DNA of 63,772 nt, the filler included, from Stramenopiles sp. TOSAG23-2 (taxonomy: Eukaryota), in the NCBI GenBank assembly GCA_900128395.1. It is 9 parts of 9 records of this genome, joined end to end, with 100 filler letters (N's around TTAATTAATTAA, not from the genome) between each part and the next. Parts side by side here need not be neighbours in the genome. Positions count along the whole stretch, not along the records: positions 23,079 to 34,497 come from LT649936.1; 8 more parts are not named here. One strand, 5' to 3'. Under the pieces are notes generated by a model. The model saw only the letters and a program-made list of their open reading frames with translations. It did not search any database and had not been told where the DNA came from. The stretch's first letter is position 1. Every line of letters starts with the position of its first letter. Positions 5,318 through 45,369 of the stretch are shown one piece after another. Position numbers and translations under genes: made by a program.

Positions 5318-5605
5318 TTAAATAAAAAATATATCATTAACTATTAAAAAAGTACGCAATAAAAGAAATACCATACAAATACAATTACAGATGAACGTTA
5401 GAATCTATATTTTATACACATGTGTGGGTAAATGAGAAAATGTACAAACGTGCACCGTCCGTTTCAAATTTGAATCACTTCTAGATGGAATCATGATATG
5501 ATATATATATGTATACAAAGCTATGGATGTGTAGATTGCTTCTAGCCATTCATTTTTATGGTTGCCATCGAAATCTTCGAGATACAATTTTTTAAAAATT
5601 AGATC

Positions 5606-5644
5606 CCTTAAATTGCCCCCTGGGGCAATTTATCCGACGAGAGG
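5606..5644. repeat. Transposon 5' end: palindromic inner repeat directly abutting the 12-bp TIR
   Basis: CCT-TAAATTGCCCC-ct-GGGGCAATTTA-TCCGACGAGAGG; its reverse complement matches the other end with no spacer. Confidence 0.92.
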
Positions 5645-5736
5645 ATATATATATATACATTTCAAACGATCGATCGATGTAGAGAGAAAAGAGAGAAAGA
5701 CCAACCAACCAAAAAAAAAGACAAAGAAATGCAAAC

Positions 5737-7507: not shown

Positions 7508-8101
7508 AATACTTCTATCGATGAAACAAAAATTGGTGACCTCAGATAGGTATTATAATAATATTATATGTGTGTATGATGAAATGGTCCAGATACTGAT
7601 ATAAAATGTTTTTAATAATTACAGAGATGTATGTATATTGATCTTTCTTTCCTTTCTATCTTTTTACCTATTGTAGATAGGACTTAAGCAACGTAATAAT
7701 GGTGTACCACATCTATTGAATATATATATATTTAACCCGGAGTTTTCCCTAATGTGCTAATGGTATGTGTATGTTAATTTTTATAATCTGGATATCCATC
7801 AAGGAAAGTCGACTTATACCAGTAGTGCAGTAGACTGAAAAAACTAGATAGCTGTAGCTACAGTATAGCTAGTAGTAGCAAAGGAGATAAAGATTCTTCA
7901 AGTTAAAATTTGCCATCACTATATTTACCTTATAGAGGCCAAAATCAAGTTAAAATTAAGGTTTTCCATCGATTTTTGTGCCTATTTAGCATATAAATAG
8001 GACTAGATGTTATTTATATGCTAATTTGTATATTTGATAGAGTATATTCTAGTATTTAGTATACAATAAGTACGAAATGACCAATTAAGAAGATGAAGAA
8101 G

Positions 8102-8103
<2 letters not shown>

Positions 8104-8135
<32 letters not shown>
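8104..8135. repeat. Poly(A) run (32 nt)
   Basis: Uninterrupted A tract upstream of the sulfotransferase. Confidence 0.9.
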
Positions 8136-8137
<2 letters not shown>

Positions 8138-8374
8138 TATTTTTCGTTCTTTCTTACGCACGAAGATAAATTATAGTCTAAGGGAATATACTCTGGTGTA
8201 TGCAGATATATCTATACATGTATCATAACTAGAATATAACTGCTTGGGAAAACAAAATACCTACATTAACATAATACATACAGTTGTTATTATATCATAG
8301 CATTTTAAAATACTTGTACCACAGTATCTACATTAACATTATTTAATACCTGTTCAGTTTTACAAAAAGATAAA

Positions 8375-9469
8375 ATGAATGATATATTATTCAATACAGA
8401 AGCATTAATAAAAGCAATACCTTTTGTATGTTTAACAACATATTCCTTATTAAAACGAAATAGGAAAAATTTATTTAAACCACAAAAATATCAAGTACTT
8501 ACAAGAAAATTAGGAGTAAGATATGGTCCACCTGGGTTAGTTGAAGGAATTCCATTTTTTATGGATCGTGAATATTTCAAATCAAATGGCAGAATAAATA
8601 GGACAGAAGAAATTATTACTACATTCAATTCAATATTATCCGTACGTGAGACTGATGTTTTTATTAATACGTTTCCTAAATGTGGCACTACTTGGACAAA
8701 TCAAATTGTTTTATTGTTATTGTTCAAAGGAGATAGTTCATCATGGAAAAACAACCCACATAATTGGGTTGTTATAAATAAAAAAGATAAAAAATCAAAA
8801 TCTTTAACTCCAATAACGTGGCCTGCAAGGCAATATTTTTTTTCTGAAAATCGTGATGTATTTTTGAAGTCATTTGAACAATTATCCAATCCTCGGATTT
8901 TAAAATCACATATGCCTATTCATTTGATGCCAGATAAACATGCAAATCGATGGAATTTAAAAATATTGAAAGGAAGAACTATTTATGTAACACGAAATCC
9001 AAAAGATGCGTTGGTTTCAATGTTTTATCATGCTCAACGTGTATGGAAGTTCAATGGTTCATTTTCTCAATGGTTTAAATTGTGGCTTTCGAATGAAATT
9101 GAATTTGGAAATTGGTTCGATCATACTATTGCATGGTGGTATGCATATAGATTACCTGCAAATAAAGGTAAAATATTATGGATTCATTACGAAGATTTAA
9201 AATTGAACAACCGTGAAACAATTGAGAAAATTGCAAAGTTTTTGTATATTGATGATGTATCTGATGAATTGTACGAAGCTGTGTCTAATAAATCATCGTT
9301 CTCTTCAATGCAAAGTGGGGCAAAGAAACGCGCTTGGTTCTTTCGAAAAGGTTATATTTCTGATTGGAAAAATCATTTCTCAAAAGAGGAAAATGAGAAA
9401 TTTAATAAAATTTATAATGAGAGGATGAAAGATGTAACGAAAGATGGATTGGTGTATAAAGGGATGTAA
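8375..9469 (+). CDS. Cytosolic-type (SULT) PAPS-dependent sulfotransferase
   Basis: 5'-PSB TFPKCGTTW, catalytic ILKSH, 3'-PB RNPKDALVS, C-terminal RKGYISDWKNHF. Confidence 0.93.
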   Translation: MNDILFNTEALIKAIPFVCLTTYSLLKRNRKNLFKPQKYQVLTRKLGVRYGPPGLVEGIPFFMDREYFKSNGRINRTEEIITTFNSILSVRETDVFINTFPKCGTTWTNQIVLLLLFKGDSSSWKNNPHNWVVINKKDKKSKSLTPITWPARQYFFSENRDVFLKSFEQLSNPRILKSHMPIHLMPDKHANRWNLKILKGRTIYVTRNPKDALVSMFYHAQRVWKFNGSFSQWFKLWLSNEIEFGNWFDHTIAWWYAYRLPANKGKILWIHYEDLKLNNRETIEKIAKFLYIDDVSDELYEAVSNKSSFSSMQSGAKKRAWFFRKGYISDWKNHFSKEENEKFNKIYNERMKDVTKDGLVYKGM

Positions 9470-23078: not shown

Positions 23079-23211
23079 AAAACGTTTGAAATGGTTGTTG
23101 GTTGTACTTCATATTCTTTTATTCTTTCTTTGTTTTTTTTAATCAAAAGCAACAATGGACTAACATTTAATATTGAATGTTTAATATATTGATTGTTAAT
23201 CCTATATGCAG

Positions 23212-26028
23212 GGCGGTGGAATATATGTTGACATTCAATTGGCTGAATTAGTACTCTTCCATTGTGTATTTCAAGGCAATACTGGTAAGAATGGTGGTGC
23301 CCTTTACATTAAAAGTTGGAACGCAAGAAAAAAAACATTATCTATTTTTAACACATCGTTTGTTCAAGCTTCAGATACAATAGTATTTGATGCCACGCCA
23401 GTTGTACCGTGTGTATCTCCATCAGGTTGTATATCAGGGCAAGGAGGCTTTGTTTCAAGTTACAACTCCGCTGCATGTAGTCAGTTGACATGTGGCGATT
23501 GTCCAAAAGGAATGCATCGGGCATCGACTACTAGTAATGACTGCTTAACTTGCACCGTCGGAAAATTTACAGAGCAATCTGGGCAACTGTTATGCAAAGA
23601 TTGTAGTGCTGGCATGTATAATTTAAAAATCGGGGCATCCATCTGTAAAAATTGTGAAAAAGGTAAATATTGCACTGGTGGAGCGGCGGTTTATAAAGCT
23701 TGTGAGCTAGGTTCGTACCAAGATCAAACAGGCAAAGCCAAATGTAAAGTCTGCCCAGGCGGACGCTACCAGCAATCAACGAAGACAGGACAAACTGATG
23801 TATCTGTCTGTTATTTTTGTGTCCCAGGTACATATTTACCTGAATCAAATCAATCTAGTAGTCATACAAGTAGTAACCAATGCCTTCTTTGTAAAAAAGG
23901 AATGTATGGCCCAGTTAGCGGTTCAAGCGAGTGCACCAAATGCGATATTGGAAAATACTTCTATGCAACAAAGCCTGGCCAAATTAAGGAATCTGAAGCA
24001 TGTAAAAAATGTGCCGGTAATACATACACGGATGATGATGGGCAATTAAAATGTAAGATGTGTCCGCAAAACAAACCTGCAAATGAGGGCCACACAGGAT
24101 GCAAAGGAGGAGGCTCAAATTTATATGCCGCACCAACAAACATACATGTTTACCCAAACCCAACTGATCCATATCATTTAAATATTGAATGGAAACCTCC
24201 TGTTGGTAAAAATTTAACTTTAACAAATAAATTTATCACAGTGAATCCAGTTGATAGTATAACTACAAAGATAGACAACGGTGGCATAGCAAAAGTGTCA
24301 GCGTATTTAAATGAAACGAGCACTGGTAGTTTATCGTATCGTGTTGCCGATCGTGTGTATCAAATAGAACTATATATTGAAGATGGATCCGGCAACCGTA
24401 TAAGTGAAAAAGCAGAATTTCGTATACCATGGCAAACAACAGAGAGTTGCAGAAGTAGTAGCTTATATTTAAACACAAATTCGAAAACATTGGTAAATTG
24501 GCAATGCAAAGCATGTCCATTGCATGCCTCATGCGAAGGTTTAATAACTTCATCCGATATCAAAGCAAAGTTTGGCAATTGGAGGGATACAGAGGATAAT
24601 AAATTTTACAATTGTTTACGCCCACAATCGTGTCTTGGTGCACCAAACGATGCGTTAGTATCACGTTTTCCTATTGAAGCCTCCGTGAAGAATTCAACTG
24701 AAGGTTGTGCAAAACATTTTAAAGGCCGTTTATGTGCATCATGTAAGAAAGGTTTTGCTCGTAGTAAAAAACGCGGTTCATGTTCAAGATGCAAAGAACC
24801 AGACAATATATTGTTGTTTATCGGTGCTGGCGTAGTTGGATTAATTGGCACATGCATTTTAATTCGCATTACGGTATTTAAACCACGGGAAGTACATTTT
24901 TCCGATGGTGTCAAAAAGATATTCCTTTCGTATCTACAGTTGGCTTCACTAGCATCTGCTGCTAACGTACCGTGGACAGAAACGTTTCGTCAATTGTTTG
25001 CCATTCAAAAAATATCAACAAGTATTGCTGATGCATTTTTATCACTTGATTGTGTCTTAGAATATACGCCGACATGGAACGTTTTTTTAATAAAGTTGTT
25101 TGGGGTGTTACTTTTACCAATCTTAATGTTACCTGTAGCGTATGTTGGAATACGATTTTGCTGTAAACGGTTCCGTCAGGATGATAGTAATTGGACAGAT
25201 CAATTCATAGCAACGTTAGTATTGTTATGGTATTTAGCATTTCCATCAATTGTACAAAAGTTAACAATGTTGATAACGTGTACAGGGAAAATAAATAATA
25301 AACAATACCTTGTTGTTGATCCAGAAATTGTTTGTTGGGAAGGTGTACATCTTCAAATTGCATCCGTATTCGGTGTAGTTGGATTAATAATGTATGTCAT
25401 CGGTTTACCATTTTTGGGGTTGTACATATTAAAAAATACTGATCGTTCAACGCCAAGTGCACAGTTAAGATATGGCATCCTTTACGATGGATACTCCAAG
25501 AAGTTTTGGTACTGGGAAATAACTGTGGTACTACGTAAACTTGCCATTATATTGATTGGCGAATTTTTAGATGGACAAAATCAGATTTTATCAATGTTGT
25601 TGGTATTATTTATTGTTATATATATTACAGCAACTTGCCAACCGTTTGAGAATGTGGAATTGCTTCGTTTAGAACTAGCATCGTTGGCCGTATGTTTCAT
25701 CACCTTTTGGATAGGTAGTTTGTTTTTAGAAGAAAGTGCAACGTGTCGTGATGGGTCAGTTTTTGTTTGTCAAGCTGGTGCAATTATAGTATTACTTTTG
25801 AATGTTGTTGCTGCAATATATTTAGGCGGTACATATGTTCAAGAGAAAGTAAAAGAAAAGAAGGAATTGATGATGAATTTTTTTCGTAGCAGTAAGCTTT
25901 TCTCTTGTTGTTGTAAAGGAGAGAGTGAACCACCAATTCGTAGAGAATCCTTGTATGAGATGGTGGAAGACGATGGAGGTGGTTTTGGACAAATTAATGT
26001 GGGAGATGATACATACCATGAGCTTTAG
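23212..26028 (+). CDS. Terminal exon of a large cell-surface membrane protein (ephrin-receptor-like/GCC2-GCC3 Cys repeats, FN3-like domain, multi-pass TM C-terminus)
   Basis: Repeated CxxCxxGxY units, APTNIHVYP...IEWKPP, and a hydrophobic C-terminus with YGILYDGY..WYWEITVVLRKL. Preceded by a branch-like GACTAAC (23158-23164) and a CAG acceptor (23209-23211), so the ORF-track ATG is probably intronic. Confidence 0.85.
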   Translation, partial: GGGIYVDIQLAELVLFHCVFQGNTGKNGGALYIKSWNARKKTLSIFNTSFVQASDTIVFDATPVVPCVSPSGCISGQGGFVSSYNSAACSQLTCGDCPKGMHRASTTSNDCLTCTVGKFTEQSGQLLCKDCSAGMYNLKIGASICKNCEKGKYCTGGAAVYKACELGSYQDQTGKAKCKVCPGGRYQQSTKTGQTDVSVCYFCVPGTYLPESNQSSSHTSSNQCLLCKKGMYGPVSGSSECTKCDIGKYFYATKPGQIKESEACKKCAGNTYTDDDGQLKCKMCPQNKPANEGHTGCKGGGSNLYAAPTNIHVYPNPTDPYHLNIEWKPPVGKNLTLTNKFITVNPVDSITTKIDNGGIAKVSAYLNETSTGSLSYRVADRVYQIELYIEDGSGNRISEKAEFRIPWQTTESCRSSSLYLNTNSKTLVNWQCKACPLHASCEGLITSSDIKAKFGNWRDTEDNKFYNCLRPQSCLGAPNDALVSRFPIEASVKNSTEGCAKHFKGRLCASCKKGFARSKKRGSCSRCKEPDNILLFIGAGVVGLIGTCILIRITVFKPREVHFSDGVKKIFLSYLQLASLASAANVPWTETFRQLFAIQKISTSIADAFLSLDCVLEYTPTWNVFLIKLFGVLLLPILMLPVAYVGIRFCCKRFRQDDSNWTDQFIATLVLLWYLAFPSIVQKLTMLITCTGKINNKQYLVVDPEIVCWEGVHLQIASVFGVVGLIMYVIGLPFLGLYILKNTDRSTPSAQLRYGILYDGYSKKFWYWEITVVLRKLAIILIGEFLDGQNQILSMLLVLFIVIYITATCQPFENVELLRLELASLAVCFITFWIGSLFLEESATCRDGSVFVCQAGAIIVLLLNVVAAIYLGGTYVQEKVKEKKELMMNFFRSSKLFSCCCKGESEPPIRRESLYEMVEDDGGGFGQINVGDDTYHEL

Positions 26029-26469
26029 AGCAGCAGTCCCTTAATATAGTTCGTAGAGAGAGTTTTAAATGATATATATATACAAAAACTTTTATTTAAC
26101 AAGATGCCCATCATCAACTATTAAAATATTAGCATGGGAATATGATAGCATTCACTTTAACCTTATTATTAATATTTATTTTTTTCCATTCCCTATCCCG
26201 TCCATCCAGAATGACATGAAAATAAATCGGAAGAAGAATAATTATTAATTTAGAATAAAAAACAACATATAAAACATAATTTATATTTATAAAATGATAG
26301 AAAGCACCAGCACCAACATAAAATTTCAATATATACAACGTATAAAAGATTTTATAATTTCGTTTGCGGAATATTATTTACTCAATATTTCTTATTTTAC
26401 GTATGTAGAAAATAATTATTAACACAATATTATATTCAAATACAATATAATTATTATTACGTATATAAA

Positions 26470-27426
26470 ATGAATAATCAATCACCATTTATTACAATAA
26501 TAATTTTAATAATAATAATAATATTTAATACAATCAATCATATCCATGCAAATAATAATATTAATAATAATGATCAAATAATAAATGCGATGAATATGAA
26601 ATGGGGGAAAGTGCCAGGTGGTGAATTTTATATCGGAACAAATAAACCAGAAATACCATTAGATGATGAAAGTCCAGAAAGAAAAGCTACTGTGGAACCA
26701 TTTGAAATGATGATATATGAAGCAAGTAATGAAAATTATTGGGCATTTGCCAATGCAACTGGATATGTATCGGACAGTGAACAATTTAAATGGTCTTTTG
26801 TTTTTGAAAATATGTTGCCAGCACGTATAAAAGATGAAATTACACAAAGTGCAGCGGCTGCCCCATGGTGGTTACCAGTACCCGATGCAACCTGGCGCGC
26901 ACCTGAAGGGGAAGGATCTAACATTTTAAAACGTTTAAACCATCCTGTTGTACATGTATCTTGGAATGATGCACAAGAATTTTGTAAATTTATTGGTGGT
27001 CGTTTGCCTACTGAAATTGAATGGGAACGAGCTGCTCGTGGAGGAAAACGTGGACGTATGTATCCGTGGGGCAATAAATTAATGCCAAGGGGTAAACATA
27101 GATGTAATATATGGCATGGAGATTTTCCAAAAAAAAATACGGAAGATGATGGCTACATGTGGTCTGCACCAATAGATGCATTTGGCCCTCAAAATAAATA
27201 TGGATTTTATAATATAGTAGGAAATGTATGGGAATGGGTGGAAGATGATTGGATACCAAATCATGGAAAAAAACAACAAGGTATGACATATGATAAATGT
27301 AAAAAAGGTGGATCATATATGTGCCATAAATCGTATTGTTTTCGTTATCGTGTAGCTGCTCGTAGTCATAATAGTGCTGATAGTGCTGCAAGTAATTTAG
27401 GATTTCGATGTGCCAGAGATTTGTAA
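26470..27426 (+). CDS. SUMF1: Formylglycine-generating enzyme (sulfatase-modifying factor 1)
   Basis: Signal peptide; HPVVHVSWNDA, RLPTEIEWE, GNVWEW; catalytic SYMCHKSYCFRYR; NLGFRCA. Confidence 0.95.
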   Translation: MNNQSPFITIIILIIIIIFNTINHIHANNNINNNDQIINAMNMKWGKVPGGEFYIGTNKPEIPLDDESPERKATVEPFEMMIYEASNENYWAFANATGYVSDSEQFKWSFVFENMLPARIKDEITQSAAAAPWWLPVPDATWRAPEGEGSNILKRLNHPVVHVSWNDAQEFCKFIGGRLPTEIEWERAARGGKRGRMYPWGNKLMPRGKHRCNIWHGDFPKKNTEDDGYMWSAPIDAFGPQNKYGFYNIVGNVWEWVEDDWIPNHGKKQQGMTYDKCKKGGSYMCHKSYCFRYRVAARSHNSADSAASNLGFRCARDL

Positions 27427-27603
27427 AAAATATAGTAGGAGGAAGGGAGAGAGAGAAAAGGTGTTTATAAAAATAAATATTTTTGTAAAAAATCTGTTTT
27501 TTTATTGAACAAAGAATGTAATATTTTATTAAAATAAATGATGGTTATTACATTTTTAAAAATTTTATTAATTGCGTACTTCTCTCTCTCTCACTCCCTC
27601 ACT

Positions 27604-30051
27604 CTACACTTTCAACGGCTGTTTCAAACGAATACTTCGTAATGTAGCATCTTTACTCAATTCAAATTTAGCTTTATAACCATGTGGCATATCATATGAA
27701 CGAATTCCATCAAGTGTTAATGTTGTATCCCAACCTAACGATAATACAGTCATTGCATTGCACCATCCATGCCTACCTTCATATAATGGTTTATATAATT
27801 TGTTAACAACCGGTTCTCTAACTAAATATTGAATATATGGGGAATCAGAATCAAATGTATGGGCATCATTTAAATTATGTGAAATATTATAAATACTTCC
27901 TTTATCTATATCTAACATTCCAGCTTCATCAAGTACACGTTTCACAACTTCTGGATGTATCATAGCTGCATTGCTCATCCATGCCGTGGAACCAGTACCT
28001 GTACAAGCTAATAAGCCGGAACTTAGTTTTTTTTTATAATTTCCTTCATCTTCCCCATCTAAAAACAATGCATGTGATACAGGATGACTTGGATCACGTT
28101 CAGCAAAGAAAATTTCATTTAATGCATAATGATCTAAATCTTCAATGGCATCACCAAGTGGACTTATTAATGTTACTTTCAACCGTTTGTGCATTTTCCA
28201 ATGAAATGCTTGTTTCTTTAATACTAAATGTAATAACTTATCAAATGTACGTGTAGTATTATTCATTGTGTAGCAACATAAAGCACCTTTACTTCCTTTT
28301 CCATCTGTATTAATCCCAACCAGAGGTATATCTGGTGATTTTATTTGAGATGCTAATTTTAAAAATGTGCCATCACCACCGGCAGCTATCATACAATCAA
28401 ATTGATCCATTGTCGTTAAATCAAATTCATTATCTACATTACGTTCCGCACGTTTAACCGTGTATTGAATATTTCTCTGTTCCAATACATTTAACATATG
28501 TTCAATAGTTGCTTCATGTACAAAATGTCGTTCCTTTAATAATTCTACATTAAATCCTTGATCTTTCAATATATTATCCATTGTTTTTTCATCATCATTT
28601 TCATTATTATTTAATAATATTAATTTTTCGGTTAAACTTTGATATCTAGATTTTTTTAATAAAATACCAACATTTGATACAGAAATAATATTTTGATCAC
28701 CATAATCTTTATTGTTATTGTTATTATAGTAATCATCATCTTTTGGTGCTATTTTTCTTTCAACAATTTTTAAATCGTTATAATTATCTTCTTCTTTTGT
28801 TATTATATTTTTCTTATGATTATTATTGCTGACAAAATTATCTTTAATTTCACTATAACTTTGTTCTCTTATTAATTCATTCTCTGCATGTCTATCATCC
28901 GTAAATTGATCTAATTTATTTAAATCATCTTCCATATCTTTTTCTTTCTCAATATTATTATTATTATTATTATTATTACTTTCTAATGAAACACTTAATT
29001 TATCAATTGCATCAATACTATCATTATTATTTTTCATATGTTTAATATATTCATCATCCATTGTATTTACAAATTTTGGATGGTTTGGTATTAAACGTTT
29101 GACACGTCTAGATTCTTCCAATAAACTTTGAGTATTATATACATTACGTACAATTTTCGTATATTCTTCTTGTCCATTATTTTTATGCAAATTATTGCTT
29201 CGTGTATGATCCCATGGACATATCGAACGAAAATATTCAAAAGTTGGAAAAATTTCATCTGGATTATATGGATTACGTCTTGTATAATGTAATATTTGTC
29301 CATTATTAATTTGATCTTGTTTATCATTTGAATATCCTAATGACGTAAAACGACCTTGACTCATTCTTTCTAAACGTAATCGAAATGCCCACATGACTTC
29401 GCCATGACAAACAACTATTGCTTTTTCATCTGGACATTCACGATGAAGCATAGTTAAAAAACGATCAACTCTTTGTGCAACATTTGCTAAACTTTCTCCT
29501 CCAGGAGGACTCCAAAAAAATCGATCACGGTCCCTTCGTTTTAATTCATGGCTAAATTTTTTAATTCGTTCTTCTTGGGACATGAGATCCAATTGGCCCC
29601 AATCTCTTTCTCTTAAAAATACTTCAGCAAACCAATTGCATTCTTTTGGAAAATCCAATAATGCAGCTGTTTCCATAGCCCGTATGTATTCACTTGTATA
29701 ATGTCGGTTAAATGAATTAATATCAAAATTTTGCTTTATCCAACTGCCAGCTGCTCTAGATTGAGCACGTCCTTTATCTGTTAAACGCCATAACGATGAA
29801 TGACGTTTCAAAAATTCACCTTCGTATAATGAATGATCCCCAGATAAAGACAATTGCCTTGCAACATTCCCTTCTGATTCACCATGCCGAACTAATATTA
29901 AATCTAATACGCGTGCCTGGCGTGTTGTTCCATTATTATTATTACTACTAGTAGTAGTAGTATAAGCAGCAACCAACTTTTTATAATATGATGGTCTTAT
30001 AGAGGATGATGATTGTCTTGAAACATGATGCAGAAGAAATTGTTTCAACAT
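27604..30051 (-). CDS. Fusion of a histidine phosphatase (PGM-like) domain and an NADK2-type NAD kinase domain, with a putative mitochondrial presequence (815 aa)
   Basis: N-terminal LVRHGESEGN, RAMETA, LRERDWG, PPGGES, VVCHGEV. C-terminal AAGGDGTFLK, GINTD, ALNEIF, SSGLLACTGTGSTAW. Acid-free R/S-rich N-terminus from ATG 30051. Confidence 0.88.
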   Translation of the reverse strand: MLKQFLLHHVSRQSSSSIRPSYYKKLVAAYTTTTSSNNNNGTTRQARVLDLILVRHGESEGNVARQLSLSGDHSLYEGEFLKRHSSLWRLTDKGRAQSRAAGSWIKQNFDINSFNRHYTSEYIRAMETAALLDFPKECNWFAEVFLRERDWGQLDLMSQEERIKKFSHELKRRDRDRFFWSPPGGESLANVAQRVDRFLTMLHRECPDEKAIVVCHGEVMWAFRLRLERMSQGRFTSLGYSNDKQDQINNGQILHYTRRNPYNPDEIFPTFEYFRSICPWDHTRSNNLHKNNGQEEYTKIVRNVYNTQSLLEESRRVKRLIPNHPKFVNTMDDEYIKHMKNNNDSIDAIDKLSVSLESNNNNNNNNIEKEKDMEDDLNKLDQFTDDRHAENELIREQSYSEIKDNFVSNNNHKKNIITKEEDNYNDLKIVERKIAPKDDDYYNNNNNKDYGDQNIISVSNVGILLKKSRYQSLTEKLILLNNNENDDEKTMDNILKDQGFNVELLKERHFVHEATIEHMLNVLEQRNIQYTVKRAERNVDNEFDLTTMDQFDCMIAAGGDGTFLKLASQIKSPDIPLVGINTDGKGSKGALCCYTMNNTTRTFDKLLHLVLKKQAFHWKMHKRLKVTLISPLGDAIEDLDHYALNEIFFAERDPSHPVSHALFLDGEDEGNYKKKLSSGLLACTGTGSTAWMSNAAMIHPEVVKRVLDEAGMLDIDKGSIYNISHNLNDAHTFDSDSPYIQYLVREPVVNKLYKPLYEGRHGWCNAMTVLSLGWDTTLTLDGIRSYDMPHGYKAKFELSKDATLRSIRLKQPLKV

Positions 30052-30161
30052 GATGATGAGTAGTATAAGCAGCAACCAACTTTTTATAATATGATGGTCT
30101 TATAGAGGATGATGATTGTCTTGAAACATGATGCAGAAGAAATTGTTTCAACATGATGATG
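29956..30161. repeat. Perfect 103-bp tandem duplication covering the start codon and presequence of the phosphatase-NADK gene
   Basis: 29956-30058 is identical to 30059-30161. Confidence 0.92.
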
Positions 30162-30732
30162 ACTATTAAATTGAAAAAAAAAAATGTTAAAATTAGATAT
30201 ATACGTGATACCAAAAATGTCAAGAAAATATATATTAATATATATAGAGAGATATACATAAATAAGCATCTTCCTTTCTTCCATTATATATATACACACA
30301 CATAGCAATAAAAGTTGTAGATATTTTATGTGTGTTTTTATTTTGTGTTTTTTCTTCGTTTTCGCACATTTTCCGATTTCACCTATCAAATGGCCATAGT
30401 TTACCAGGTATGATAAAAGTTGATGGAGAGGTGGAGAGGTCGTGCACAGATTAGCATATGAATAAGATGAAGTGCTATTTATATACTAAATAGATAAATA
30501 TATTACGATATGTGTGTGTGTGTGAGATTAATATGACGTATGCATATATATTATAAAATCAGGTCTCAACAAACCTGTTTTTCAAGAAGTAAATACTGTA
30601 CGATATGCAACATATGTGTGTATAATATTTAAATTAATATGACGTATGCAGTATGCATATATATACGAGCGCTTCGTATAAAATTTCCTCTCTCTCTCCA
30701 CAATAATACATGTTTTCAATTTTTTCAATTTT

Positions 30733-31561
30733 TTAACCAGCATTTACAAAAGCTATTTGTGTTCTTGATGCATTAATTTTCCAAACATCAATTGCTTCAT
30801 ATTCCTCTAAACAATTTTCAATTTGATCTTGTGTAAATCCTTTCGTTACCAATGTTTTCTCTACGGAAGCATAATTAATAGTAGTTTCACCACGTTCTGT
30901 GGCATAATCACGAATAATGGAATATACTCTAGTTGTGACATCTTCACCTATAAATTCTTCCTCTTCCATTAATGCTGATTTGCACATATGTACTAAACGT
31001 ATCGCCTCTTCTACATCTTCATGGCTTACTGCTTTACTGAAACGTAAACGTGCTAATGCTTGTGCTAAACGTAATATCGATAATAATTGACGTGCTGTCA
31101 TGACACTTTGTTGACCTGCATCACGTGCATTTTCCGCATCTCGTGCTCTCATATCGACATATGCTTGTACGATGTATGATGTTAATGCAGGTGGTATAGA
31201 TGGTTGTAATTTCCGTGCTTGGGAGATATATGCACGTATGAATTTGGAACTTAAAGGTTCAAAATCTAATTCTGGGTGCATACTATTTTGATGTACATAT
31301 GTTACATGCCGTGCTAATGACATGTCGGAATCCATATCTGCTTTATCCAAAATTAAAAACAATAAATCAAAACGTGACAACAATGCAGCAGGTAGATTAA
31401 TATTTTCACTAGGTGTTTTACGTCGATTGTACCTACCATACAATGGATTTGCTGCTGCTAAAATGGCAGTACGTGCATTTAACGTCGTCGTAATCCCTGC
31501 TTTTGCAATGGATACCGTTTGCTGTTCCATAACCTCGTGAATAGCGGTACGATCGCCATCT

Positions 31562-31593
<32 letters not shown>

Positions 31594-33009
31594 ACCCATA
31601 TCTGCTAATACCAATGCACCACCTTCTAATGCCATTTCCCCTGTAACAGGATCTTTGCAGATAGCTGCGGTTAAACCTACACCACTACTACCTTTACCAG
31701 TAGTATATACACATCGTGGTGCAACTTGACAAATATGTTTTAATAATTGTGATTTTGCAACTCCTGGATCTCCCATTAATAATACATTAATATCCCCACG
31801 AATTTTCATTCCATCTCTCATTTCTTTCGTCACACCACCAACTAATTGCAATAACAATGCTTTTTTAATATCCTCATGTCCAAAAATTTCAGGTGCTAAT
31901 GAACGTGACAATTTGGAATAAATATTCGGATCCTCCGATGCTGCTTCGACTAATTCTTTCATTTCCTCCGTCAATTGAAAATCATCGTAACTTTTTTTAT
32001 CTAAATCAATATCCATCGCTTCCAAATACGTATCTGCAATTAAACCGGCGCGTATGGCACGGACACCAGTAAATGGTGTTGGTAAAAATATACCACTAAT
32101 CGTGGTTACCTCTCCAGCATTTACTTTACGGGTTAAATCCCCTCTTGCTATTACGGTCATGCTGCGTGGAATATGACCAACTGGAACTTGATTTGGTAAT
32201 TCTTGAATTTTAATTTCTTGATAACGTACAAATTTAGATCCACGTGTTTGCATATATAATTTACCACTTGAATTATTTGCTTGGCATTCTTGTGAAGGAC
32301 ACATGGCACATGGCATGAAATGTTTACCAATCACTTCTTGATAAATTTCATAACCACAACTATCACACGTATACGTAGCAATTGATACCATCGGTTTGAC
32401 GCCTGATACGCGGGTTACAATACCTTTAATACGCACACTACTTCCTATTTGGCTAGCACTTAATTTTCGTAAAGAAACTGCACTTGTTTTAAAAGGTGGG
32501 ATAACATTTAACTCATATCTACGTGTTAATTCCGGTGGAAAACTTGGTCGTTGATTTTGTTGATTGCCGACACCACCGTTTAATCCATCCATTTGTTGCT
32601 GGTTCAATTCTGCTTGAACACGCGTTGCTTGCAATGTATCAAATACATCTTCCACGATATCAATCCCGTCGCTAGGTTCCATACCAACCATTAATTCATC
32701 AATAGCATTTTTAAATACTTCCAAATAACGATGTGTATTTCGTTGAATTTTATCAACAAACTCTGCATCACCAGTATACGTCATAACATCATCTAATTCA
32801 ACTATCACACGTTTCCGCCTTCGATCTGCAACGTCTTGCAACATATTCATATATTTATGTATATGCGTATCTGAAGTAATATATTTTTCCAAAAATTCCA
32901 CTGCCCTGTTTTTATCATCGTCATAATCAATAGTATTCCCAATACCACTACGATTTTGATTATCCCCTGGATTGCCTAAATCCAAGTCTAAATCTCCAAA
33001 TGCATCCAT
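30733..33009 (-). CDS. MCM7: DNA replication licensing factor MCM7
   Basis: PPELTRRYE, Zn finger YTCDSCG...CPSQEC, QVPVGHIPR, Walker A MGDPGVAKSQ, IDEFDKM, SRFD. Confidence 0.97.
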
Positions 33010-33706
33010 TGTTCTATATTATTGTTCTAATAATAACACTACTACTAATTATTATTATTATCGTTGTTGTTGTTGACAATGGACAATATTACAATATATA
33101 TATATTGAACTAATTTGATATTATTTTGGTTCGTATTGATTCTGTTGTTTGTTCAATTATACCACTTTTGTGTATATTTTCTATGTTGTTTGTTTTAACA
33201 AATTTGAAATTGATATTCAAAACAGAACGCGAAATATGACTTAATTGGACGATTTCCATGTTATGAATAGGGTTATGTTTTGACGCAAAGAACATCGTAT
33301 ATCATTGATAACATTGTATATATAGATTATGATGAGACGTAAAAATTATAATATAAGGAAGTTTTCGAAGATATTTGTTTTTGTGGGAAATTTGGATGAA
33401 TGTGTTTACAGGTAAATAGCATTATTGCCGATATCCACCTTGGGTAACAGGTAAATAGCACCAATTAATACTTTTAATAGGAGAATAGCATTGGATATAG
33501 GAGTATTGTCTTTTTAATTAAAACTAACATTATCGGGTATTTGTTTGGTTTGATATTGTTAATGCAGTTAAAAATATCTATTTTTCCCTTCTAAATTTAC
33601 GTAAATATTTGTTTCATTTCTTCATTTCTTTCATTTATTGAATTTATACTAAATAGAATATCATATCAAAATTTAATGTGTTATTTTTTTTGGATATAAA
33701 AATACC

Positions 33707-34047
33707 ATAGTAGGTGAAAAAGCTACTCCTTCATAAAGTTGTAAGTCACATCCTTTAATTAAGCTGTATTGTTTTATATCATTATTGAACTTAACTTTCC
33801 ATTTTCTGTCCAGACCAAAATTTTTTTGCTTGTCTTTCAGCGTTGTTCTCCTTCTTCAAAGTGTTCTCCAGAATGCTGTTCACTTCCTTCTTCGTAGGTA
33901 ATACTTTCGTCCCCCTTTTCTTAGCATTATTCTTCTTGTGTTTGTTTTCACTCTTCTTATTTTCATTACTTTTCTCCTCGGCGTCAGCATCACTATCATC
34001 ATTTCTTAATGCATTATTAACTGCGTCCTTTCCATCATGTGTCCAAT
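33707..34047 (-). CDS. Probable internal exon of an unidentified spliced gene
   Basis: About 110 open codons on the minus strand (DWTHDGKDAVNNALRNDD...YEGVAFSPT), bounded by an ATTACAG acceptor-like site and a GTATTT donor-like site. No motif recognised. Confidence 0.35.
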
Positions 34048-34370
34048 CTGTAATCTATATTATATATGATGGTATGCACATGCTATATTATATTGATCAT
34101 ATGAATCCAAAATGATTTTTCGTGTTTTTTTTCACTCAACAATAAAATCATAATACCTGGTTGTATGTTGATACTATTTTATACCTTACTGTTTGTGTCT
34201 TACACCACACGGAATATCAAATAAACCTTCCTTTCACGTAGTCTTTTCATAGGCATTAAAGGGTGAAAAGTACAGTACAAATTGTCATAGGTAAATAAAG
34301 GCTAATTTGCTAATTTGTAACTGACGACTGACGAAGAAGAGCACAAGTACTACGCAGTGCTATACCCTCT

Positions 34371-34410
34371 AATACATGCAAAAAATGTACAATACATGCA
34401 AAAAATGTAC
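34371..34410. repeat. 20-bp tandem duplication
   Basis: AATACATGCAAAAAATGTAC x2. Confidence 0.9.
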
Positions 34411-34497
34411 ACTTAATAAAATAACAAAATAACACTATTCACTATAGGAAATATGTAAATATCGTTTTCTAAAATGCCAATTTTATTTTTCATATAT

Positions 34498-38802: not shown

Positions 38803-38862
38803 ATGGATGATGCAGATGCAGCATATGAGTCCTTGAAATGGGCGAAAGAAATGTATCATAAA

Positions 38863-38903
<41 letters not shown>

Positions 38904-41900
38904 TAATAATAACGATAGCGATATAAGTGACTATGGGGAAGATGTTGATAATGTCGATATAATGAATGATGTTACTATAGATTTTAACAATAATGAAGAT
39001 ATGAATAGTGTTGATAATGGAACCATTGGTATGAATGATTTAGATAATTTAGTATCTCCCAACTCTATGGTTGCTTCTGGTGGATTTAGAGGTGACCAAA
39101 CCGTAAAACTTGCCGAGTTAGAACAGCGCTTAAAAATCGCAAACGAACGCGCAGAAAGATGGAGGCAACAAGCTGAAAAACTAGATTCAAGTGGCGTTTT
39201 AGATCCTATACGTCGCGCCTCTGACGTCGAGCGCTACCAAGCCCAAGTAAAAACATTGAGGAAGGAATTATGGGCGGCAAGGAAAGAAACGGAGGATTGG
39301 AAATTAAAAGAAGCCTCTGGAAGAGCAGAAATTGTTGCCTTGCGCTCTGCAAATAGTCGTTTAAAATCGAGATTAAAAGAAGCAGAAAATTTACAAGATA
39401 TTGTATCTAAAAGCTCCGATAGTAGTAAAAATGAGAAAGTAGAAGAGTTGACAGTTGCATTGGAAATTGCAAAACGTGAATTGACACGAGCTGACGATGA
39501 AATTGCGGACTTACGCATGGTATCCATTAAAGGTGATTCAGAAACAACAAGTTTAAAAGAAAAAATCAAAGCATTAGAAAATGAAAATATTAAATTAGAA
39601 AAACGGTTACAAGATGAATTAAATGATATTCGTCGTAATAATAACAATATAAACAATAGAAGAATGAGACACCAACCACAAAGTAATAATTATATCCCAG
39701 ATTCAGATGATGATGATTTAGACTCGGATGAAGATAGAAGTGTTGGTGCAACTACATTTAGTCGACAAATGAATAATAATAACAATAATAACGGGATGTA
39801 TGGCAGTCCAATGTCAAATAATAGGAATAGAGCACAACCAACTTCCCCTGTCGATAATGTTATCAAATCAATTCCAGAGCAAGTTGCAATTCGATTGCGT
39901 CGAGCGGCACAATTGAATCAAGAATTGCAACAGCGTATGTTTGCAGCAGAGGAAGAAGTCGAACGTTTGAAACAATTAGAGGATGGTCGATTTGAAAATT
40001 TAGAAGAAGAAAATAGATTGTTACAACGGAAAATCAATGATTTGAAAGAGGAAGTTGTTACACATCAAAATTCCTTGATTGCTGCTGATGCAGATTATCA
40101 AGAATTAAAAGCTATGCATGCTACAGAAGTAGCAGAATTGAAAAAGGAGCACACGGCAGTAGCAACGACATTGGCAATATTATCAAAAGATACTAAAGAA
40201 GTAGAAAGGTTAAAGGCAAAAAAAGTAGCTGCTGAAAAGGCGGAGAAAGATGCAAAAGCAAAATTGGCAAGTGAGCGCAAACGGCAAGTGTCGGCACAAG
40301 ATGCATTTGAACAGGAACAAGCTGCGGAGACGAAAGTTAGGGAAGAAGCGGCTTTAGTGGAACAAGCTAAACGGATACAAGACCAACACAGAAAACAAAT
40401 GGAAGAAGCGTTGAAAAAAAAAGAGGAAGAATTAAAGAAATTTTTGGAATTAGAAATGGCAGAGTTAAATAAAGAACGTGCTGCGCAGCAAAAAGCAAAG
40501 GAAGAAGCAGAACGATTACTGATGGAATCGCAAAAAGAATTAAGAAATATGGAAGGGGATGCTGAAAAAATGAAACGGGAGCATGATGAAGCTATGGAAG
40601 AACGATTAGCAGAAGAGCAACGCATGGCCGAAGCAATAGTAGAACAAGAACGTGCGAAAGCGGAGGAAGCAGCAAAAGTACATATTGAAGAACAAAAATT
40701 ATTGTGGGAGGAAAAATTGAAACTAACTGAAGATCGTTTAGCTAGGCAACATGAAATGGAGGTAAATACAATTAATAGCTTAGCAAATGAAAATGAAGAA
40801 CAAGTCAAAGCGATGAAATTAGAAATGGAAAGAATGCAAGTTGAACATAAAGAAAAAACAATAGCAGAAGAGCGAGAACGAGAGAGAAAACAAAGGGAAT
40901 GGGAGGAAATGGAATTTAAAAAGAAACGTGAACAAGAAAATGAATTATTCGAAATGGAAAAAGCAATGCGTAAAGCTAAGTTAGAACATGATGAAATGCT
41001 AGAAAAGGCTAAAAAAAAGAGCAGCAAAAAGGTAAAGGAAGCATTGAAAAAACAAGAGGCAGAAATGAAACGGCAAAAACAATTGCACGATGAAAAACAA
41101 CGTAAATTACAATTAGATTTGGAAGGGGATAAGAAAAAGCACGAGGCGGAATTGAAAAAACACGCCGAGGATGTAAAACGAAAGGAAGAATCATATCAAA
41201 GAGAATTAGAACAGCAAAAGAAACGTACGGAACAAATAAAACGAGAAAATGAATTAAAATTGCAAAAAGAGAAAGAATTAGCAGAAAAGCATGCTAGGCA
41301 ACAAAAGGAGGAAATAGCCAAAGCAAAAAAACTCCATGATGATAAATTAAAAGAAGCTAAATCGACATATGAAAATGAAATGAAAGATGCGAAGAAAATG
41401 CATGATCAGCACATGGAAAATACGCACAAACAGCTTGCGGCATCTTCTAGTGTTATTCATATATTAAACAAACGACAAGAAAAGAAAAAACGCAATGTTT
41501 TAAAATTTGCACATTCATGGAAAGGTAAGGCAGGGAAAAAAGGTGCGGAAAGAAAGGCAGAAGATGACATCCAAGAACGTGCTCGACAACATAGGGAAGA
41601 ATTGAAAAAAATGGGGCAAGATTTAGAGAAAAAAGTTGCAATGCAAAAAAAAAGTATAGAAGAGTTTGAAAAAAGAAGTGAAGAGGAATTTAAACGTAAA
41701 TTGCGTCAGCATGAAGAGGAATTAAAACGCAAGGAAGAGTTTCAAGAGCGTGAATTGAAAAAACGACAAAAAGAACACGAGGAACTAATGCGAGAAGCAA
41801 AATCACAACATAGCAAAGAGCTAGAACGACAATTACAAGACAATGAAAGGAAGGTCAAACAGGCGCAACGATTACTAGACGAGAAACACAAGGCACACGA

Positions 41901-44900
41901 GGCGGAGATTGAGCGAATACGGAAAGAGCAACAAAAATTTGAAAAGGAAAAAAATATTGAGTTTGAACGCCAATTAAAGAGGCAAGAGGAAGAAATGAAA
42001 CGCCAAGAACGTGAGGCGGAGCGTGAATTAGAAAGGAAAAGAAAAGAACACGATGCGTTGATGGCACATGCGTTGACAAATGCGAGCGCCCAAATGGATA
42101 GACAATTAGCTGAAAATGAGAGAAAATTGGCCGAGGCAGAACGTATTGCTAATGAAAAAGCTAGGAAACATATGGAAGACGTAGAACGCATGAAACATGA
42201 ACATGAAGAATACTTAAGAAAGAAGCACGAAGGTACAGAAGCACGCTTAGAAGCGAGGGATAGGGAACTGAAGGAGAAGGAACAAGAGAAGAAAAGAGAA
42301 TTAGAGAAACGCCAACAAGAGCATGATGAACTAATGAAAGAGGCAAGCAAAACACATAGTGCTGCATTAAATAAAGCCTTGGAAGAAAATGAACGGAAAC
42401 TAAGGGAAGCACAAAAGGCTACTGATGAAAAACATGCAAAACACCAAGAAGAATTGAAGCGGCTTAAAAAAGAGCAGGAGAAATATTTACAGGAAAAGCA
42501 TAAGAAAAATGAAGCATTGATTGAAAAATTAAAACATGATCAAGTTTTACAAGTAGAAAAAGCAAAAAAGCAACATGCCATCACGATGAAATTCTTATCA
42601 AAAATGGAACAGAAAGGAAAAGAACGTACAAATATGGCAAAACGCTTAGGTGGCAAGTGGCGAAATATAACTGGCAAACGAAAAGAAGTCAATAAAGTCA
42701 AAGAAGAAGCGATGGCTAAGGTAAGGGCAGCTGAAGAGCATCAACAAAAAACGGCGGCTGCATTGAAGGCAAAGGAGGAGAAACTACGCCAAGAACTAGA
42801 ACGTGAGAAACAAAAAATGAATGCTGTGATGGAAGAAGAGGAAAGAAAACGTCGTGAGTTGGAAGAGAATCTATCAGCAGATAAAGCCAAATTGGAAAAG
42901 CTGCAGGAGGAGCATAAATCGAAGGCATCGACAAAATCATTCAATAATGTCATGTCTAAATGGGCTAATAGAAGCAAAGAGCGCAAAAAGGCATTGCAAT
43001 TGCAGAAGGAAAGGGAAGAGGCAGATCGCAAGTTAAAGAAAGAGGAGGCAGATAGAATAAAGGTGGAGAAGCAATTGAAAGCACAGGAAATGGCCATGAA
43101 AAATCAAGAAAGTACGTTAAAGGAGAAAGAGGAGGAGCATAGAAGATTCAAGGAGGAACAAGAAGCTAAATTAGCAGAAGCAAAGGACAAACAAAAGCAA
43201 TTAGAAGAGGAAACAAAGGAAAAAGCGCGGACGTTGGAAAGGCAGAAACGTTATGCAGAGGAAGAAAAAAAGAAACAAGAAGACAAATTCAAGAAAGAAC
43301 AAGAAGAATTGCAACAAAAATTAAAAAAGCAACAAAACGAAATGAGCAAAAAATTACAAGAACAACAAGCACAGCTGGAAAAGGAGAAGAAGAAAATGGA
43401 AGAAAACCTAAAGAAGCAAAAAGAAAAGATGAAACGTTTGGAGTTGGAAAGCAAGCGTAGCTCAAATAACTTAAAAAAGAGGATGGAGTTAGAAACTGAA
43501 CGGGAAAAAGAACTTGCTATGCAACAGGCATATGATAAATCAGAATTAGAAGCTGCTAAAAAGTTAAAAGTGGAGCATGAAGCCGCTGCAAAAAAATTAA
43601 AAGAAGACCATGATAAAGCAGCCATGTTGTTAAAGAAAGAACGAGAAGAAAAATTAAAATCTGTTGAAGAAAAAGAAGAATTATTGAAGAAGGAACGTGC
43701 GGAACACAAGCGTATGCAACAGGAAATGAAAGCTCAGTCGGAGAATGTATTGCAGGAAGAGAAAAAATTGGCTGCATTGGAAAGGAAGAAATCAAATCTT
43801 AGGGAATCAAAGTTAAAAGAAGAGTTGAAAGTTGTTAAAGAGAAAGCATTGAAAGCAAAGATGGGAAATTTGTTGGGAAACAAAATGGCTGGTCTCAAGA
43901 TGAAGAAAAATTCCTTGATACGCAAATTTGCAAGTAAATGGAAGAAAAAAAGTGATTTAAATAAAGCATTAAGTAAGGTAGAAAAAACATTACTTGCCGA
44001 GCGAGAAGCAGCGGAAGCAAAGGCATTGGCACATAAGAAATTACAATTAAAGTTAACGAAATTGGAAAAGGAGGTAAGCGAAAGCAAAAAGTTAATAGCT
44101 AAGAAGGAAACGGAATATAAAGAAAAATTAGAAACGTTGGAAAAATCACATCAAGAAAAAATAACCATCATGGAAAAACAGGCAGCGGAATTGAAAGTTT
44201 TGGCTGAAGAAGCTGAAGGTAAAAAAGGATCATTAGAAAGTGAAACAAAAGTCATGGTCAAACGTTTGGTAGACAAGGTGGAAGGAAAAAATGATTTATT
44301 GCATCGTGCTAGAATACGAGTAGCTAAACTAGAAGCTGAACGGAATGTATTAAAGAAAAAATTAGAGCAATATCGTTCCAGGGAAGCAATGATTGCCGAA
44401 GAAGCTGCAACGGAGGCAGAAAGACAGGTGATAGCATTGACAAAATTACGCAAACAAGTTGAAGAAGATAGTGAGCATATGGATAATTTAAATGCTTTGC
44501 AACGTAGCTTTGATCCAGATATACTTGTAATGACGCATAAAAAGAAATTAATGCAAGAACAGCAAATGCAATATTTAAATAGTGTACAGCAGCAGCAACA
44601 ACAACAACAACGTCAATCACCGTCACCAACGTTAGATATGCCACAAAGGCCAATCATTGATACATATTCATCGCCGGCTGGTAAAATGTTTGATACTTTC
44701 TTAGACGCAACAAATGAGGTTAGAAATAATATCAATCGTGCTGATACATTTGATATATTTTCAGGTGTACCAAGAGGTATGCCAAATAGTCCTTCGCAAC
44801 AAATTCAACATCAACAAAAAATGCAACAGATTCAAAATTTGAAACAACAATTGGAACAATTGCAACAACAAGGAATATCATCATCATCTTCTCGTCGTAA

Positions 44901-45369
44901 TTCACCAACTGCTAGTTTTGAAACAAAACTCGATAATTTCAATACAAATAATAATAATAATAATAATAATAATAGTAATAATGGTTCGATGGAAAATAAT
45001 ATTAATAATGTATACCCAACACAACGTCAACAAGAAGGTCATGAAAAAATGGCCTATTTAAATCGTTTACAAATGGAAGTGCAAAATGCTAGAAAAGAAG
45101 TGGATGCTGCTAAAGAGGCTATACGGATACAAAATGCACGTTATTCAAATCTAAGACCCGAAAATAATTTCAAAAAATTAAGTATGGGTGATCGACTTTT
45201 GCAACATAGAATGGAAGTTCCAATGGAAGGAATATTTAATAATACTGATGTGAACAGGTTACCATCCCGTCATGGTGGACAAACGAAAATTGCTAGTAGC
45301 GTATCTAAGAATAGAGTGCATATTACCAGGCAAGGCAGTGTTTACATAGATACAGATGACAACATTTAA
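38803..45369 (+). CDS. Giant coiled-coil protein (2,188 aa)
   Basis: Long E/K/Q/R-rich helical ORF with N-rich termini and three 91-aa internal repeats. Confidence 0.85.

Follow-up and report, generated by a model that had tools for sequence, protein, structure and literature searches.

To our knowledge, NAD kinase is the only route to NADP, and we know of no NADP phosphatase gene that has been assigned for most bacteria and protists. Enzymes for the reverse step, from NADP to NAD, are known patchily and include, in the passages of PMC12557515 that deal with them, an archaeal fusion of the inositol-monophosphatase type, the animal proteins nocturnin and MESH1 and the chloroplast protein CCR4C (2025); in addition, the reference list of that article holds a 1987 report of mitochondrial NADP phosphatase activity. 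Here we analyse a gene on the minus strand, at positions 27604-30051, of a 63,772-nucleotide stretch of DNA from Stramenopiles sp. TOSAG23-2 (hereafter the window; nine parts of assembly GCA_900128395.1 joined by filler letters, the part at issue being LT649936.1 at positions 23,079-34,497). Its product, P0001, carries a histidine phosphatase and an NADK2-type NAD kinase on one chain, and we tentatively propose that these act as opposing enzymes of NADP metabolism.

Several described systems share features with P0001. In PFK-2/FBPase-2 (PFKFB), a kinase and a branch-1 histidine phosphatase likewise occupy one chain, and in P0001 as well the phosphatase would undo the product of the kinase. FBPase-2 domains were among the best matches of the P0001 phosphatase (PDB sequence search, E 1e-7; Foldseek, E 1.3e-11), although the identity was only 21-25% and the substrate differs. 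Membership of the PFKFB family was rejected, as no 6PF2K Pfam match was found at E<=0.1 and the kinase of P0001 is an NAD kinase located at the C-terminus, that is, in the reversed order. MESH1 has an HD fold, and Pfam did not find an HD domain in P0001. The protein MJ0917 of Methanocaldococcus jannaschii (NCBIfam NF010678), mentioned in a passage of PMC12557515 as a bifunctional NADP phosphatase/NAD kinase, provides a precedent for both activities on one polypeptide, but its phosphatase has the inositol-monophosphatase fold and its kinase is of the classical type, whereas the kinase of P0001 is of the NADK2 type. Assignment of P0001 to the MJ0917 type was also rejected, its phosphatase being His_Phos_1 and an inositol-monophosphatase-fold domain not being found by Pfam. 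Nocturnin, CCR4C and MESH1 share the proposed reaction, NADP(H) to NAD(H), but the first two have, according to the same passages of PMC12557515, the endonuclease/exonuclease/phosphatase fold, for which P0001 contains no Pfam domain. Finally, the plant and algal NADK subfamily II has gained N-terminal catalytic domains by gene fusion, including DSPc and PTPc phosphatases (passages of PMC4072752), but there the phosphatases have the cysteine-based PTP/DSP fold and the kinase belongs to a chloroplast-type subfamily.

The gene consists of one open reading frame (ORF) of 815 codons plus stop in the standard code, uninterrupted as the preliminary description had it, with the closest in-frame stop 16 codons 5' of M1 and no earlier ATG between. 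Pfam places His_Phos_1 (PF00300) at residues 51-242 (101.1 bits, cut-off 21.7) and NAD_kinase (PF01513) at residues 525-608 (45.9 bits, cut-off 25.5), an architecture that recurs in several eukaryotic lineages. The intact phosphatase active site that had been claimed was found in full (RHG 55-57, R124, E148, HG 216-217), as was the intact NADK2-like kinase (GGDGT 558-562, NE 645-646, TGTGSTAW 684-691), and the linker between them is indeed rich in N and D, with 26 N, 19 D, 14 K and 12 E in residues 331-455 (28687-29061; this and all further features of the gene are on the minus strand). This low-complexity, N/D/K/E-rich region is open in the frame of the gene only, with 0 stops versus 4-41 in the other five frames, and the chance of 125 open codons, calculated from its base composition, is ~1e-7. 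Its length varies among homologues, and it was unalignable in a set of 16 fusion proteins.

The histidine phosphatase domain, as delimited by PF00300, homologues, an AlphaFold2 model and Foldseek, comprises residues 45-330 (29062-29919) and includes a conserved C-terminal beta subdomain past the Pfam core. It contains the motifs VRHGESEGN (residues 54-62; 29866-29892), with R55 and the presumed nucleophile H56, SEYIRAMETA (120-129), LRERDWG (146-152) and VCHGEV (214-219; 29395-29412), with the second catalytic histidine H216; the catalytic roles of R55, H56, R124, E148 and H216 are presumed from general knowledge of the superfamily. In the 16 aligned fusion proteins R55, R124, E148 and H216 were invariant and H56 was present in 15, and H216 was also invariant in an alignment of bacterial and eukaryotic members of the clade. 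A profile score over the cut-off, the presence of the catalytic residues and the alpha/beta fold of the superfamily place the domain among the branch-1 histidine phosphatases. The AlphaFold2 model (pLDDT 86.4, pTM 0.84) has the usual core and a small beta subdomain, and it retrieved 328 PDB chains at E<=0.001 with Foldseek, those listed all being branch-1 enzymes; PspA (phosphoserine phosphatase), FBPase-2, CobC and cofactor-dependent phosphoglycerate mutase (dPGM) ranked about equal (E ~1e-11), and Foldseek found no close solved structure, the query-normalised TM-scores being 0.48-0.54.

No curated NCBIfam model reached its cut-off on the phosphatase domain, the best for both P0001 and the bacterial homologue at locus L001 being CobC (TIGR03162), with 63.9 bits against a cut-off of 162.9. 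Membership of the CobC alpha-ribazole phosphatases was rejected on this missed equivalog cut-off, and so was the database name phosphoglycerate mutase, with TIGR01258 at 29.7 bits versus 81.7 and all dPGM equivalog models far under their cut-offs. Residues 45-330, used as the query, matched at least 1500 homologues shorter than P0001, of which the best 120 were mostly stand-alone proteins of 265-275 residues with 49-58% identity over ~95% of the 286-residue domain; the named carriers among these 120 were Patescibacteria (Candidatus Buchananbacteria, Uhrbacteria, 'Patescibacteria group'). Since stand-alone proteins of ~268 residues match 95% of the domain, the domain includes a conserved part C-terminal to the Pfam core, a long extension (243-330), and across 14 bacterial and eukaryotic members of the clade 45 columns were invariant. 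An exhaustive search with the whole of P0001 gave 2779 cluster representatives at E<=1e-3, of which 327 reached E<=1e-30; matches in the ESM Atlas were only clusters automatically named phosphoglycerate mutase. Among 29 relatives that are long or of unusual length, three of them with 1294, 1442 and 1959 residues, Pfam detected only His_Phos_1, accompanied by NAD_kinase in four, and no other fusion partner. Judged by its sequence, the domain is a member of a distinct, strongly conserved and unstudied branch-1 clade without a close characterised relative. In the JGI annotation, 38 of the 120 listed stand-alone proteins of ~268 residues (e.g. P0038, P0051 and P0053) are called 'NAD+ kinase' with only PF00300 recorded, a name that was probably carried over from the eukaryotic fusions.

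The C-terminal domain (residues 456-815; 27607-28686) was recognised as an NAD kinase of the NADK2 (C5orf33) type by its match to human NADK2, by PF01513 and by conserved motifs. These are AAGGDGT (556-562; 28366-28386), the GGDG signature of NAD kinases, GINTDG (579-584), ALNEIF (643-648), SSG (677-679) and TGTGSTAW (684-691; 27979-28002); GGDGT (G558-T562), NTD and SSG were invariant in the 16 fusion proteins, and TGxGS was conserved. A PDB sequence search matched human mitochondrial NADK2 (7r4j, 7n29) at E 5e-33 to both halves of the domain (residues 459-628 and 642-811), which makes it the closest solved relative; classical NAD kinases reached E 1e-4 or worse. W691 falls in the same column as a tryptophan of human NADK2, which we tentatively equate with Trp-319 of PMC3535332. 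The motifs given for C5orf33/NADK2 in passages of PMC3535332 are GGDG, NE/D, motif 1 PX-GXN(T/S)DP, motif 2 and a conserved Trp. P0001 keeps GGDG, NE and the tryptophan but differs from human NADK2 in its motif 1, PLVGINTDG, which ends in G and not in P (14 of 15 aligned homologues have NTDP), and in the phosphatase domain, which human NADK2 lacks. With a profile score over the cut-off, NADK2 as nearest characterised relative and GGDG, NE, SSG and W691 in place, the domain belongs to the NADK2 type, and NAD(H) kinase activity would be expected from its family.

The fusion is not peculiar to this stramenopile. A word-indexed protein search returned 35 relatives of similar length to P0001, most of them with both Pfam domains, the best being P0002 with 51% identity over 94% of P0001. 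Fusions are present in oomycetes (Pythium oligandrum, Phytophthora boehmeriae, P. cactorum, Globisporangium splendens and Aphanomyces), in the haptophytes Diacronema lutheri and Prymnesium parvum and in Rhodelphis marinus, and there is a partial form in Entosiphon sulcatum. Apart from the linker, the alignment of the 16 fusion proteins extends over their whole length. The MMETSP and Trinity records are assembled transcripts in which both domains are included, so that a single mRNA is documented in relatives. A quick maximum-likelihood analysis of 97 domain sequences, from which bacterial ORFs outside 255-345 residues and profile matches of fewer than 180 positions were left out, placed all 18 fusion domains in one clade together with three short forms (21 rows, SH-aLRT 95). 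With midpoint rooting, all eukaryote-like rows grouped with the bacterial sequence of locus L013 amid Patescibacteria; the tree being unrooted and its backbone support 80-89, we draw no conclusion on which way a transfer between bacteria and eukaryotes went. A word-limited search of shorter proteins for stand-alone NADK2 in fusion-bearing taxa gave 30 matches, none from a named oomycete or haptophyte. The fusion is thus confirmed as real and conserved across several eukaryotic lineages.

The preliminary description had suggested a possibly undescribed single-polypeptide switch. Full-text searches of the literature turned up no account of a histidine phosphatase fused to an NAD kinase, but the architecture itself is already in databases under the automatic names 'phosphoglycerate mutase' or 'PhoE/NAD kinase'. 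The passages of PMC3535332 that describe C5orf33 homologues of protists and their motifs leave a phosphatase domain unmentioned. What is new is therefore not the sequence, which is in public databases, but the reading of it and its bacterial support. Eukaryotes also contain the phosphatase without the kinase, namely as a stand-alone form of 345 residues in Clastostelium recurvatum and as two tandem copies in each of two kinase-free proteins of Pelomyxa schiedti, P0029 and P0030 (577 and 599 residues), the second copy of both appearing to be without the RERD motif.

At the other end of the chain, residues 1-48 (29908-30051) form an N-terminal extension that had been described as presequence-like, and its composition bears this out, the 51 residues ahead of the phosphatase core including 7 R/K, 1 D/E and 14 S/T. 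Of 23 fusion proteins, 19 have such an extension ahead of the core, 35-108 residues long and with many R/K and S/T but few D/E, and in this respect the N-termini of the fusion proteins fit a mitochondrial presequence.

The stand-alone phosphatases of bacteria offer a second view of the clade. We scanned one genome per prokaryotic species, called, clustered and annotated the ORFs, and sought NAD genes within 6 kb of each phosphatase. Of 79 phosphatase loci, most were from Patescibacteria, the others from a few Actinomycetota, one Planctomycetaceae metagenome-assembled genome (MAG), one Armatimonadota and one Binatia; among viral contigs, 17 pattern matches included no relative of the phosphatase. 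At nine loci (L001, L003, L014, L019, L026, L028, L044, L046 and L051) the phosphatase stands amid NAD genes on the same strand, which across these loci encode a PncA-like nicotinamidase, a NadD-like nucleotidyltransferase, NAD kinase, an ADP-ribose-pyrophosphatase-like Nudix protein, PncB (NF003704, 445 bits, cut-off 379), the ribose-phosphate diphosphokinase Prs, a glutamine-dependent NadE (NF002730, 799 bits) and an ADP-ribosylglycohydrolase. In L001, where the NadD-like and NAD kinase genes are separate, the kinase (5080-5889) lies directly upstream of the phosphatase (5989-6792), and the order is the same in L003. The L001/L003 kinase is of bacterial type (NCBIfam NAD kinase models up to E 2.5e-20; PDB NAD kinases ~1e-8), and the copies in L044 and L046 exceed the cut-offs of PF01513 and PF20143. 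At 24% identity and E 0.013, the operon kinase is not NADK2-like, which means that the phosphatase became associated with NAD kinases of two different lineages. The gene upstream of the phosphatase at L013 encodes an NrtR-type Nudix regulator of NAD metabolism.

Other features of these loci were recorded. The NadD-like protein and the NAD kinase are fused into one protein of 460-465 residues at L014 (2435-3814) and L028 (3008-4402), both scanned, and, by cluster membership and length, at L026 (2500-3894). Nucleoside 2-deoxyribosyltransferase (NDT)-like or Nudix neighbours are present at L014 (6927-7691), L044 (4667-5815) and L046 (4695-5843), that of L046 being an NDT-like protein fused to Nudix; a LOG-type neighbour is present at L062 (7299-8018) and an inosine-uridine nucleoside hydrolase-like one at L019 (4334-5365). 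At the remaining loci, recurring neighbours are Nudix proteins at L023 and L039, RpiB at L004, a nucleoside phosphorylase at L052 and, by cluster assignment, LOG-type proteins at L050, L057 and L062, of which only the L062 member was scanned.

Co-occurrence was assessed in 301 evenly sampled Patescibacteria genomes, 16 of which carry the phosphatase and 285 do not, to be read with the caveats that MAGs are incomplete and that Pfam is weak on divergent kinases; the operon kinase of genome G001 scored only 21 bits with Pfam. In this sample PF01513 was found in 73 genomes, in 40 over the cut-off, and the PncB family NAPRTase (PF04095) in 4, two of them carriers. NAPRTase was strongly enriched in carriers reached via the loci, 15 of these 50 genomes having it but only 2 of the 285 non-carriers (odds ratio 61; p 6e-12 by Fisher's test, kinship ignored), and inside the sample it was present in 2/16 carriers versus 2/285 non-carriers (p 0.015). 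PF01513 over the cut-off was found in 18/55 carriers versus 39/285 non-carriers (p 0.0013) when the five operon genomes examined first were included, and in 14/50 versus 39/285 (p 0.019) without them.

Because of the eukaryotic fusion and the bacterial NAD operon, which are independent of each other, a link of the clade with pyridine-nucleotide metabolism is supported. The preliminary interpretation as a whole is borne out in part. As the best-supported mechanism, to which we grant somewhat less than an even chance, we propose that an NADP(H) 2'-phosphatase and an NAD kinase share one chain, the substrate being suggested by the fusion and the gene neighbourhood. In this mechanism, P0001 would combine in a single polypeptide two enzymes that oppose each other in NADP metabolism, and its basic N-terminal extension would probably direct it into the mitochondrion. 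The NADK2-type domain would, as its family suggests, phosphorylate NAD(H) at the adenosine 2'-hydroxyl to give NADP(H), and the phosphatase domain would remove the same 2'-phosphate from NADP(H) or might instead act on a 2'-phospho-adenylate that arises from its breakdown (2',5'-ADP or 2'-phospho-ADP-ribose, for example), with R55, R124, E148 and H216 assisting a phospho-His56 intermediate. Together, the two domains might set the organellar NADP/NAD ratio in the manner of PFK-2/FBPase-2, presumably under regulation so as not simply to burn ATP, and the same clade would act in stand-alone form in Patescibacteria, within NAD salvage operons. Going further, we speculate, as a possibility of more modest likelihood, that the clade of ~270 residues is an unnoticed, dedicated family of NADP(H) 2'-phosphatases, stand-alone in Patescibacteria and some Actinomycetota and exchanged between bacteria and eukaryotes. 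A lineage of early eukaryotes would have joined it, once, to the mitochondrial NAD kinase, and the resulting substrate cycle, comparable to that of PFKFB, would serve as a switch of the organellar NADP/NAD ratio in present-day stramenopiles, haptophytes, Rhodelphis and euglenozoans.

A number of observations weigh against this proposal. A kinase and an opposing phosphatase on one chain form a futile cycle unless they are regulated, and no regulatory feature was identified in P0001; for the mitochondrial location, the evidence does not go beyond the composition of the N-terminus. One fusion protein, P0014 (an MMETSP transcript), reads RPG for RHG, with proline in place of the nucleophile histidine and the rest of the domain conserved. 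RNA contigs from four seawater libraries (X1, X4, X7 and X11) cover 27615-28552, 29069-29283 and 29462-29766, but none spans the linker at 28690-29068, where repeats were skipped, a gap that is neutral as to a single transcript. Moreover, CobC, which scored best among the NCBIfam models, cleaves a 5'- and not a 2'-phosphate. On the bacterial side, 70 of the 79 loci have no NAD genes within 6 kb, and among these, NrtR at L013 and Nudix proteins at L023 and L039 apart, most other scanned neighbours are unrelated. Enzymes that cleave nucleosides or nucleotides (NDT-like, LOG, nucleoside hydrolase) often flank the bacterial phosphatase. The co-occurrence tests ignore shared ancestry, and PncB is more closely associated with the phosphatase than NAD kinase is. 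Inside the even sample, PF01513 was as frequent in carriers as in non-carriers at E<=1e-3 (4/16 versus 69/285, p 1.0) and was found over the cut-off in 1/16 versus 39/285; a PF01513 match was absent from 12 of the 16 carriers of the sample and from 35 of the 55 carriers examined, or two thirds, a figure blurred by incomplete MAGs and the weak sensitivity of Pfam. A fair reading is that the clade has a tie to NAD salvage, that NAD kinase is included in this tie in the operons and that most carriers are without a recognisable NAD kinase.

These points leave room for other substrates. The alternative that survives best, although we regard it as rather unlikely, is that the phosphatase acts on a different intermediate of pyridine-nucleotide recycling, most likely the 5'-phosphate of nicotinamide or nicotinic acid mononucleotide (NMN/NaMN), which it would turn into the riboside in a CobC-like reaction, or else on ADP-ribose phosphate, in which case the fusion to NADK2 would reflect shared pathway regulation and not a shared metabolite. 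CobC acts on alpha-ribazole-5'-phosphate, an N-ribosyl phosphate made from NaMN, and its place as the best-scoring curated bacterial model (63.9 bits) is in favour of such an activity, as are the much stronger co-occurrence with PncB than with NAD kinase and the NDT-like/Nudix (L014, L044, L046), nucleoside hydrolase-like (L019), LOG-type (L050, L057, L062) and nucleoside phosphorylase (L052) neighbours. However, the CobC score is far under its cut-off of 162.9, it is not obvious why a mononucleotide phosphatase should be fused to a mitochondrial NAD kinase and the fusion be kept across several eukaryotic lineages, and the position of the phosphatase directly after NAD kinase in L001 and L003 would go unexplained. 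The clade of P0001 also differs from CobC by an extra C-terminal subdomain of ~80 residues.

We consider it improbable that the domain is a general or unrelated small-molecule phosphatase, for example of a sugar phosphate or phosphoserine, and that the NADK2 fusion and the NAD operons carry no mechanistic meaning. Such an enzyme would be in line with the 70 of 79 loci that lack NAD genes within 6 kb and with the about equal Foldseek ranks of PspA, FBPase-2, CobC and dPGM, but an identity of ~50% between bacteria and eukaryotes and 45 invariant columns point to one constrained substrate, and it would have to disregard three separate NAD associations (the NADK2 fusion, the operon with a bacterial-type NAD kinase and the NrtR neighbour) together with the enrichment of PncB in carriers (p 6e-12).

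Little probability attaches to the idea that the domain controls the attached kinase, either as a protein phosphatase or as a regulatory module without catalytic activity, for which PGAM5 of animal mitochondria would be the model. PGAM5-type protein phosphatases have the same fold, and P0014 keeps the domain without the nucleophile histidine, but the catalytic residues are invariant in 15 of the 16 fusion proteins, and stand-alone bacterial members with ~50% identity are found in genomes without a detectable NAD kinase, a degree of conservation not expected of a protein substrate. Even more doubtful is a repair enzyme or mutase that moves or removes a wrong phosphate, such as a 3'-phosphate on NAD, after the 2-to-3 shift of dPGM. 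The fold is common to dPGM, in which the mutase tail caps the active site, and the long conserved C-terminal extension at residues 243-330 could form such a cap. Moreover, 3'-NADP occurs in nature, according to PMC5491322. However, TIGR01258 scores 29.7 bits versus its cut-off of 81.7. Lastly, that two genes were read as one through a gene-model or assembly artefact, which would agree with RNA contigs of four runs covering both halves while none bridges 28690-29068, is hardly credible in view of a linker open in the gene's frame only (chance ~1e-7), of P0002 with its 51% identity over 94% of the length and of transcript-derived homologues that span both domains.

If the proposed activities of NADP(H) phosphatase and NAD kinase are true, P0001 would be a bifunctional kinase/phosphatase of a cofactor pool and a second example, after PFK-2/FBPase-2, of one chain that regulates a metabolite pool by means of a kinase and a histidine phosphatase, and the reduced genomes of Patescibacteria would gain an added step of NAD recycling. 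The clade of its phosphatase (~270 residues) represents a concrete and readily expressed candidate for an NADP(H) phosphatase family, and its confirmation would correct two widespread annotations, under which the fusions are called 'phosphoglycerate mutase' and the stand-alone phosphatases 'NAD+ kinase'.

Several minor observations concern the bacterial loci. In five NAD loci the next gene after the phosphatase encodes a MoaA-like radical SAM protein of ~315 residues with weak matches to curated models (L001:6810-7751, L003:3582-4517, L026:6816-7766, L044:6801-7760 and L046:6798-7607), and at L051 such a protein is encoded by the second gene downstream (7899-8876). In a Solirubrobacteraceae MAG, the phosphatase occurs in a form of 633 residues (L073:4876-6774), where it occupies residues 378-566 behind a part of ~377 residues without a Pfam match. 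Long antisense ORFs, grouped in cluster c5, overlap or adjoin the phosphatase on the minus strand at L007 (4259-5377), L016 (4688-5929), L019 (5335-6669) and L040 (6210-7100); the cluster is mixed, as its L007 representative has no Pfam match and its L016 member is an HflX-like GTPase, and the antisense ORF at L019, which took the place of the true phosphatase gene in ORF calling, is most likely an artefact of composition.

In the window, the genes around P0001 are ordinary eukaryotic genes without visible introns, in DNA of ~30-35% G+C. By eye, we take the flanking ORF at 26470-27426 (plus strand) to resemble a secreted formylglycine-generating-enzyme-like protein and that at 30733-33009 (minus strand) an MCM-type helicase subunit. 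Farther along the window, an ORF of 2188 codons at 38803-45369 (plus strand) encodes an E/K/Q-rich, coiled-coil-like sequence, which accounts for the strong purine skew at 40-44 kb.

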